Positions 53,186 to 55,536 of a stretch of 64,000 nucleotides of DNA are shown one piece after another. Made by a program: the position numbers and the translations under genes. The notes below the pieces were generated by a model. It did no database searches. It had not been told where the DNA came from and saw only the letters and a program-made list of their open reading frames with translations. Source of the DNA: a virus (taxonomy: Duplodnaviria > Heunggongvirae > Uroviricota > Caudoviricetes); the IMG/VR virus record IMGVR_UViG_2909314774_000001; one strand, given 5' to 3'. Every line of letters starts with the position of its first letter. The stretch's first letter is position 1.

Positions 53186-53907
53186 GCCTTTCAATCATTT
53201 CCTGCCTGTATTTAATACTTTTCCGCCTGATAGGTTTAGTCAAAATGTAGCCATCGAAACGCAAATGCAACTAAACAGAAGGAGACTTACATGAGTTCGG
53301 TTGAAAATGTAATGACAAATGATGATCTGGATGAGCTGACAGCCATGTTGCAATCACTTGATGAACCAGTAAAAAAAGCCGCACAGGTTGAAAATACTGA
53401 TGATATTGACGATCTGCTGCTCGGCCTCGATGCTGGCGTAGCCATGAGTTCTGATGATGTTGCCGAAGAACTGTTCAATGAAGAAAAAGCAGGTGATTTC
53501 AGCTCTGCTTTAAATGAGTTGGAGTTAGCGCATGAGCCTATAAACGTAATTAACGCTGAAAGTGTTGAATCTGCCGAAAACGAGCCAGAACAATTGGGAT
53601 TGATTGAGGTTGAAGAGTGTGTTGAGGTTAATGATGAATTAAAAGTTCAACAGTCAAATGATAGCAATACAAATAAAAAAGCTCGTGCTGCAAGAGGTCC
53701 TCGTTTTACTTTAAGTGATAAAGATGATTCGTTTTTCAATAAAGCGGGCTTAGAAAAAGATATTTTCTTAGACGCTTACGATAACGCGCCTGTCAAAGCA
53801 AAGGATAAGATATTAAACCTTCTTAATTGGTTTAGCGGAGGTCCAGATATTAGTGTTTACACGGTAATTTCCATGAGTGAAGTGGTCAACAAAAACTGGC
53901 CACCGAG

Positions 53908-54726
53908 TTAGAGTTTTTTCCAGTATCGATTTTCCGATTCGTTTGGTGGTAACCCACCATTATATTCGTGCGGTCTTAGTGCGCTGTAATATCCAACGAT
54001 ATAGTCCGTTATTGCGTGAGCTGCATCGCTGAAGCTTACATAGCCCGTCGCCGGCACCCATTCGTTCTTCAGACTCCTGAAGAAGCGCTCCATTGGGCTG
54101 TTATCCCAGCAGTTTCCACGCCGACTCATACTCTGCCTGATCCGGTATCTCCACAGTAACTGCCGGAACTGCCTGCTCGTATAATGACTGCCTTGATCGC
54201 TGTGGAACATCACCCCGACGGGCTTACCACGGGTTTCCCATGCCATTTCCAGTGCTTTCATGGTAAGCCTGCTGTCCGGCGAGAACGACATGGCCCAGCC
54301 CACTGGTTTTCTTGCGAACAGGTCGAGAACAACGGCGAGGTACGCCCAGCGCTTACCCGTCCAGATATAGGTCACATCACCGCACCACACCTGATTTGGC
54401 TCGGTCACGGCGAACTGCCGTTCAAGGTAGTTAGGGATAGCAACATGTTCATGACCACCACGTTTATACCGGTAAGTCGGCTGCTGACAGCTGACCAGCC
54501 CCAGCTCTTTCATGAGTCTGCCAGCAAGCCAGCGCCCCATCTGGTAGCCTCTCTGGGTTGCCATTGTGGCGATGCTTCTTGCTCCGGCAGAGCCGTGGCT
54601 GATGCCATGCAGTTCAAGTACCTGGCTGCGTAATACAGCCCGTCTGCCGTCTGGCTTTTCAGGACGGTTTTTCCAGTATTTGTAGCTGCTGCGATGGACC
54701 CCGAACACATGGCAGAGAGTGGCCAC
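53908..54726 (-). CDS. IS911-like transposase OrfB (DDE catalytic domain)
   Basis: Integrase-core-like DDE region (...[10 protein letters not shown]...[10 protein letters not shown]...); A AAA AAG slippery site near 54809 (- strand) suggests the usual -1 frameshift fusion with OrfA. Coordinates are the open frame as given in the ORF track. Confidence 0.85.
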
Positions 54727-54752
54727 AGGATAACGCGCCCTGAGTTTCCCGA

Positions 54753-55055
54753 TTATCGAGAACTGTTCAGGGAGTCTGACATCAAGAGCGCGGTAGCCTT
54801 TTTTAATATTTCATTTTCCATTTCAATACGTTGTAGCTTTTTCCTGAGCTCACGGATTTCAATTTGTTCCGGGGTAATAGGGGAGGCTTTTGGTGTTTTT
54901 CCCTGCCGCTCATCACGTAATTGTTTCACCCATCGCGTCATTGTGGAAAGGCCGACATCCATAGCGCTGGCTGCATCTGCCACGGTGTAATTCTGGTCAA
55001 CGACCAGTTGAGCGGATTCGCGTTTAAACTCTGCGCTGAAATTTCTTTTTTTCAT
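54753..55055 (-). CDS. IS911-like transposase OrfA (HTH)
   Basis: [29 protein letters not shown]... closely matches the IS911 OrfA sequence as I recall it. Confidence 0.9.
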
Positions 55056-55536
55056 TATGGCACCTGTGTTGTTCTGAGGTGAGCATATCACCTCTGTTCA
55101 GGTGGCCAAATTCAGTAAACCACTTCAGAGACACCTTCTCACAGAAAAGAAGGCTACAAGTAATAGTATTAAGATTGCTTTAATGAGCAATCCAGAAAAA
55201 CCGTATCCGCTTAACACTGCGTCAACTCAGGCTGGGCAAATGATGGCTGTATTTCCAGCGACAGGAATTGCCGTTAGAGGCGGTGGAAATCTAACATTGA
55301 ACGAAGAATCACCGATCGTTAAGAAGTTTGTCGCGGAGTACACTATTGGATGACGTTCCCCTACTGAAAATAAAGCCCATAGAGAGCTTTATAGTGCTGG
55401 GTAAGCCAATCACATACCCAGCACCACAAAAACGCGCCAGAGAGCTTCTCGTTTGCATTTCTGGCGCGTTTTATTTGATTGCCAGACATAAAATCAAATG
55501 CAAAAATAGGTATTTACTTACCTATCGAGAAAGAAG

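Follow-up and report, generated by a model that had tools for sequence, protein, structure and literature searches.

We found that an insertion sequence (IS) interrupts a conserved gene in a 64,000-nucleotide viral stretch (IMG/VR record IMGVR_UViG_2909314774_000001; hereafter the window), which holds 64 kb of an element of about 111 kb. Very probably, a copy of ISEc52 from an Escherichia coli host genome transposed into a phage-plasmid that was resident as a plasmid, splitting a 269-aa gene conserved in the SSU5 group. The gene runs from an ATG at 53291 to a stop codon ending at 55353, and the IS occupies 53878-55127 between two copies of GAG. All of these positions had been proposed in a first-pass annotation, made from the letters of the window, and all of them were right.

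The interval 53878-55127 contains, on the minus strand, a complete IS3-family element of exactly 1250 bp that starts with TGAAGTGG and finishes with CCACTTCA. A megablast comparison with 5,426 complete E. coli genomes returned full-length 100% matches in many chromosomes, including that of Nissle 1917, and RefSeq labels these copies "IS3-like element ISEc52 family transposase". The element was matched in 4885 of the 5426 genomes, and a copy with at least 80% coverage was present in 1799. Its identity to the IS911 copy of Shigella phage Sf6 was 94.9-95.1%. The prototype of IS911 comes from Shigella dysenteriae, and the isoform convention at ISfinder is about 95% nucleotide or 98% protein identity. 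Going by the RefSeq annotation, the element is ISEc52 (IS3 family, IS3 group), a near relative of IS911. The earlier description of a complete 1250-bp IS911-like element was accurate in every respect examined. It had also been proposed that the insertion marks residence in an IS911-carrying host; what stands of this is an E. coli host carrying the element, which by RefSeq naming is ISEc52 rather than IS911. A single copy is present in the window, with a guanine-plus-cytosine content of 51.6% against 45.5% in the flanks.

Members of the IS3 family are about 1.2-1.5 kb long, with two consecutive and partly overlapping open reading frames (ORFs), and generate a 3-bp (sometimes 4-bp) target duplication. 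The element agrees with the family in its length class, in two overlapping ORFs with orfB in the -1 frame, in a frameshift heptamer, in a helix-turn-helix OrfA and a DDE OrfB, in imperfect repeats with TG...CA ends and in a 3-bp duplication. On the minus strand, orfA (54753-55055, 100 aa) encodes an HTH_Tnp_1 DNA-binding domain (PF01527, E 6e-14), and the orfB frame (53908-54804, with its stop at 53908-53910) encodes the rve/DDE integrase core (PF00665, E 1e-31; rve_3, PF13683). All of these domain matches exceed the Pfam gathering thresholds. The heptamer A AAA AAG lies at 54798-54804, also on the minus strand and in the correct phase within orfA, and a conceptual -1 slip there gives an unbroken 382-aa OrfAB with orfB as its C-terminal part. 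The right terminal inverted repeat (IRR, 53878-53904) reads TGAAGTGGTCAACAAAAACTGGCCACC on the plus strand, and the left one (IRL, 55101-55127) reads TGAAGTGGTTTACTGAATTTGGCCACC on the minus strand. The repeats were correctly called imperfect: they match at 21 of the first 27 positions, being identical at the first 9 and the last 8 of these, and at 27 of 45 over a longer span.

The two GAG copies lie at 53875-53877 and 55128-55130. A 3-bp repeat says little by itself (chance 1/64). The decisive comparison is with IS-free relatives, in which the empty site reads TCCATGAGACACC. At the homologous place, IS-free pAMPD1 (NZ_CP058356) reads ...TTTCCATGAGACACC... with one GAG, which proves the target duplication, and one GAG is also found at the homologous site of a Logan contig of ERR10167428. 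The empty site of pAMPD1 lies within one annotated 810-bp coding sequence, WP_021520509 "hypothetical protein". When 53291-53877 was joined to 55131-55353, an in-frame sequence of 810 nt was obtained that encodes 269 aa, and 265/269 residues are identical to WP_021520509; removal of the IS and one GAG had indeed been expected to restore a single ORF. Comparison with IS-free relatives, which had been suggested as a check, further revealed that the flanks are collinear with the intact pAMPD1 gene and that the junctions coincide with the IS ends. With a 4-kb query around the element, most of the listed E. coli relatives and four phage records covered exactly 69%, that is, everything except the IS. 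Such a pair of empty and filled sites, as judged from these alignments, is the classic mark of transposition that duplicates 3 bp of the target.

The window is collinear with pAMPD1, at 94-99.9% identity, over nearly its entire length. pAMPD1 carries phage genes (terminase, portal, major capsid, tape measure, tail fibre) together with plasmid and metabolic genes (RepA, ParB-like, DnaB-like helicase, primase, NrdAB, ThyA, DHFR, Dam). Many non-mobilizable E. coli plasmids of about 105-116 kb match the 4-kb region at 98-99% identity, and the Escherichia phages Cyrano, CMS-2020a and PhiR41_1 match it at about 95%. By this collinearity the replicon is classed as an SSU5-like E. coli phage-plasmid. 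The proposed gain of 1.25 kb over a presumably IS-free ancestor is small; the IS-bearing contig, at 111.2 kb, falls inside the 101-122-kb range of related records.

The reading frame of the 5' part of the gene continues into the IS as far as a stop codon whose last base is 53911, and the resulting 206-aa ORF has 196 native and 10 IS-encoded residues. An exact-sequence protein look-up found this truncated product in two NCBI assemblies, and it was solely through this look-up that the junction was found elsewhere. One of them, the 111,212-bp contig CP020118.1 (GCA_002056635.1), is identical to the window across the 6.6 kb compared. In the other, GCA_022406745.1, a draft contig carries the left junction and ends 60 bp within the IS; short-read assemblies typically break at repeats. 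A 400-bp left-junction query against the 5,426 complete E. coli genomes returned no locus with at least 80% coverage. The 4-kb query against PLSDB and INPHARED returned IS-free relatives, plus two plasmids (H34 and H35) that cover it fully and carry ISEc52 elsewhere. The junction is thus in no PLSDB, INPHARED or RefSeq complete E. coli record, indicating that the insertion marks one narrow lineage.

Since its identity to chromosomal copies is perfect, the element almost certainly came from the chromosome of the host or from another plasmid in the same cell, from which a copy would have moved while the phage-plasmid resided as a plasmid. By the biology of IS911, a -1 frameshift at A AAA AAG would fuse OrfA to OrfB and give the DDE transposase OrfAB. 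By copy-out/paste-in transposition, a circular copy of the element with its ends abutted would then form and integrate at a 3-bp staggered cut, the repair of which would duplicate GAG.

Two rival readings of the junction were weighed. An assembler may have wrongly joined a chromosomal IS copy into the plasmid contig; IS copies are a classic source of such errors, and E. coli has this one in multiple copies. However, the TG...CA ends of the IS delimit it to the exact base, the sequence on either side is collinear with one gene, and the left junction is also found at the end of a draft contig in another assembly. Furthermore, a mis-join would not duplicate, on either side of the IS, 3 bp that relatives have only once. 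An artefact is highly improbable on these grounds, and we regard it as effectively refuted. Alternatively, the IS could be ancestral at the site, with the IS-free relatives arising by precise excision. Nothing specific favours this history. At protein identities of 54-99%, the intact gene is found in E. coli, Salmonella, Klebsiella, Enterobacter, Citrobacter, Cronobacter and further genera. The insertion is recent, as the IS matches chromosomal copies at 100%, and IS3-family elements rarely excise precisely in a way that also takes out one copy of the duplication. We give an ancestral IS almost no credence.

The disrupted gene belongs to the family phrog_5235, which is listed as of unknown function. 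Its 5' part (53291-53877, plus strand, from the ATG) comprises codons 1-195 and the first two bases of codon 196, and encodes an acidic N-terminal half, a linker and the start of a predicted winged-helix domain. The 3' part (55131-55353, plus strand), defined by splicing, alignment and model, begins with the third base of codon 196, continues through codons 197-269 to the stop codon, and encodes the remainder of that predicted domain, namely beta1, alpha2, the recognition helix and the wing. The product had been described as highly acidic. This holds for the whole protein, with an isoelectric point (pI) of 4.3, but the acidity is limited to residues 1-125 (35 D/E versus 4 K/R, pI 4.05), whereas residues 126-269 are basic (pI 9.46).

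Homologues were found in 741 PLSDB records, 684 of which have the gene uninterrupted over at least 80% of its length; most of the remaining records are distant homologues that share the C-terminal domain alone. The hosts include Klebsiella, Escherichia, Enterobacter, Salmonella, Citrobacter, Cronobacter and Shigella, and more than 10 genera overall. The homologue of Salmonella phage SSU5 is 57.5% identical, and Aeromonas plasmids and 112-kb Pseudomonas syringae phages have more distant homologues that share the C-terminal domain alone. Alignment showed that the N-terminal half and linker are variable and acidic while the C-terminal approximately 130 residues are strongly conserved, with 43 invariant columns among sequences down to 38% identity. 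An intact gene in nearly all relatives across more than 10 genera, together with this conserved domain, argues for purifying selection.

In an AlphaFold2 model, residues 1-133 have low confidence and residues 140-269 have a predicted local distance difference test score (pLDDT) above 90. The order of elements in the confident part is H189-201, E203-205, H206-214, H223-240, E243-246 and E249-252, which corresponds to the alpha1-beta1-alpha2-alpha3-beta2-beta3 arrangement of a winged helix. The N-terminal half is presumably largely disordered, and the C-terminal part presumably forms a DNA-binding, winged-helix-like domain. This is a structural prediction, and it assigns the protein to no named winged helix-turn-helix or regulator family. 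Two other truncated homologues were considered as further disruptions and rejected: that of P0045 is uninformative, as its assembly is ridden with frameshifts and its DHFR gene is split too, and that of P0030 is partial at a contig start.

The insertion falls within codon 196, at the Met196/Arg197 boundary and inside helix 189-201, the first helix of the predicted winged-helix core. The recognition helix and wing are severed from the remainder of the protein, which most likely no longer functions, with DNA binding probably lost; the product would be at most a 206-aa acidic fragment. The gene had also been taken to be probably dispensable. The disrupted plasmid is present in at least two sequenced assemblies, so the plasmid can replicate and be maintained without an intact gene. 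In the longer run the gene is probably not dispensable, because it is intact in nearly all relatives from many genera and its C-terminal domain is constrained. The claim thus applies to persistence of the plasmid and not to the longer history of the gene, which is conserved across more than 10 genera.

We also found a second, independent insertion into the same gene. The Logan contig of ERR10167428 contains, at 4612-7035, an IS21-family element of about 2.4 kb (IstA 499 aa, IstB 251 aa) with an approximately 9-bp duplication CTACAAGTA. Its position is homologous to window ~53901-53913 / 55131+ and lies 24-33 bp downstream of the ISEc52 site, and the GAG site in this isolate is intact. Such a pair of hits could mean that loss of the gene is advantageous in the plasmid state, for instance by locking in plasmid maintenance or lowering a cost, so that IS hits are enriched. 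The presence of the ISEc52-disrupted plasmid in two assemblies points the same way. Against it, disruption is rare, as the count of 684 among 741 PLSDB records indicates, and no record of PLSDB, INPHARED or RefSeq E. coli carries the same junction. The 43 invariant C-terminal columns imply purifying selection, and two hits in thousands of sequenced copies look like neutral or mildly deleterious accidents. Selected inactivation is therefore very unlikely in our judgement. A more specific form of the idea takes phrog_5235 as a lifestyle regulator whose knock-out by IS elements is a recurrent, selected route by which SSU5-like phage-plasmids are domesticated into pure plasmids. Two different IS elements within about 30 bp in independent isolates would fit, and these two events stand against hundreds of intact copies; we consider domestication very unlikely.

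Transposition of ISEc52 from the host genome remains our preferred explanation, and several points weigh against parts of it. The mechanism is carried over from IS911 biology and applies to this copy by analogy. The two assemblies with the junction are possibly not independent strains. As for the protein, the winged-helix assignment is based on a predicted structure; the gene product had no Pfam match above threshold, no PDB sequence match and no PADLOC match, and a Foldseek search of the PDB with the whole model gave no significant match (best E 0.14). We infer loss of function, and a GTG-initiated 83-aa ORF at 55102-55353 could in principle express a C-terminal fragment. No point contradicts the insertion itself.

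The effect of the insertion on neighbouring genes was considered next to that on the gene itself. Upstream lies an exonuclease gene (PF00929) and downstream the dam methyltransferase gene (55537-56130; PF05869, Dam). A terminator-like hairpin with a U-run is located at 53135-53169 (plus strand), downstream of the 3'-5' exonuclease gene, with a folding energy of -20.9 kcal/mol (z -4.25; 0/200 shuffles as good), and it forms the upstream limit of the unit from which the disrupted gene is transcribed. Between the disrupted gene and dam, a second terminator-like hairpin followed by UUUUAUUU is located at 55429-55472 (plus strand; -26.2 kcal/mol, z -6.49). Both were folded directly, as a consensus scan had overlooked them, their loops being beyond its limit. 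A consensus scan likewise found no promoter for the disrupted gene. With terminator-like hairpins on both sides of the gene, polar effects on the exonuclease or dam genes are unlikely. Near the upstream end, the relatives H55, H57 and H58 have an extra 795-bp ORF (a 264-aa hypothetical protein; 1077-1871 of the fetched NZ_CP126951.1 stretch) between a 139-aa ORF and the 3'-5' exonuclease gene, and this ORF is lacking in the window.

Alignment with pAMPD1 revealed other variable places in the replicon. At 6958-8725, where the pAMPD1 sequence differs, an ORF on the plus strand (7014-8720) encodes a 568-aa KAP-family P-loop NTPase (PF07693) that matches PDC-S49, a candidate defence family of PADLOC (E 1.6e-21); this may possibly be an accessory defence gene of the phage-plasmid. 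A variable segment of about 1.4 kb at 17255-18696, opposite about 380 bp in pAMPD1, contains a minus-strand ORF (17270-18532, 420 aa) with no Pfam or PADLOC match. At 13995-14004, beside a DNA ligase gene, pAMPD1 has a 5.6-kb insertion that the window does not have, with a TnAs1 (Tn3-family) transposase, a resolvase and a methyl-accepting chemotaxis protein gene. The RecA-like gene at 33152-34225 (plus strand; PF00154, 357 aa) is unbroken in the window, while pAMPD1 has 1270 bp extra in frame at 33343-33347, and the 779-aa protein encoded there bears the annotation LAGLIDADG homing endonuclease. The extra sequence resembles an intein or homing-endonuclease insertion whose presence varies within the family. 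Finally, 729-1979 in the tail-fibre region had no megablast match to pAMPD1, and the adjoining blocks are just 94-95% identical, a divergence that fits exchange of a host-range module.

The insertion shows that the phage-plasmid spent time in an ISEc52-bearing E. coli, and its junction is unique and can be typed by polymerase chain reaction, so that it tags this plasmid lineage. It is also a natural knock-out of the widespread and unannotated phrog_5235, predicted to be an acidic-tailed winged-helix protein, and the allele could help to establish whether induction, packaging or infection requires the gene. As a known IS in a known replicon family, arising by a known type of event and already in a public record, it has little import beyond annotation; the structural hypothesis for phrog_5235 and the knock-out allele are a modest by-product.

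Compared with ISEc52 of E. coli genomes, the element is 100% identical at the nucleotide level over 1250 bp, and the orfA/orfB layout, the A6G site, the inverted repeats and the 3-bp duplication are alike. The element itself has no differences, and the insertion site alone is peculiar to this plasmid lineage. Compared with IS911 of Sf6 (AF547987), identity is 95.1% over 1239 bp, and the 1250-bp length class, the gene layout, the 382-aa OrfAB and the TGAAGTGG termini are shared. The IS911 copy of Sf6 also splits a phage gene, a ninG-like one. The two elements differ by about 5% of nucleotides, in their RefSeq names and in the IRL bases beyond TGAAGTGG, which are CACAC in IS911 and TTTAC here (tip GGCACAC versus GGTTTAC). 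In the Sf6 record (AF547987.1), the mobile_element feature for IS911 (48-1296 of the fetched stretch) is apparently 3 bp off the TGAAGTGG...CCACTTCA ends.

Of 50,697 phage records, only those of Sf6, SfII and SEN22 contained this IS type at full length. The first-pass annotation's view that packaged phage genomes seldom carry IS insertions is fair for phages in general, with these three carriers, but for phage-plasmids such an insertion is unremarkable: Pfeifer et al. report numerous transposable elements in phage-plasmids, in contrast to ordinary phages (PMC9600943). The present insertion is one more example of phage-plasmids accumulating transposable elements like plasmids and not like phages. 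Within the SSU5 group, the legend of Fig. S9 in a 2025 survey (bioRxiv 10.1101/2025.09.12.675607) describes members for which the gain or loss of an IS is the sole difference from public sequences, and the event described here is of the same type, as published IS or transposon gain or loss, in the same replicon family. ISEc52 is also found at other sites in related plasmids. The copy in NZ_CP029421.1 (1002-2251 of the fetched stretch) is 100% identical and adjoins a deletion of about 10 kb (pAMPD1 91002-101023 missing), and that in NZ_CP124394.1 (1001-2249 of the fetched stretch) is 99.9% identical and lies at a rearrangement junction, where it links the tail module to the 139-aa ORF in inverted orientation. 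Both of these copies lack flanking direct repeats. In contrast to such IS events in the group, the copy in the window is a simple insertion with its duplication intact, with no adjoining deletion or inversion and no passenger or resistance gene. IS gain in SSU5-group phage-plasmids has already been described, and the ISEc52 event is an ordinary one of this known kind.

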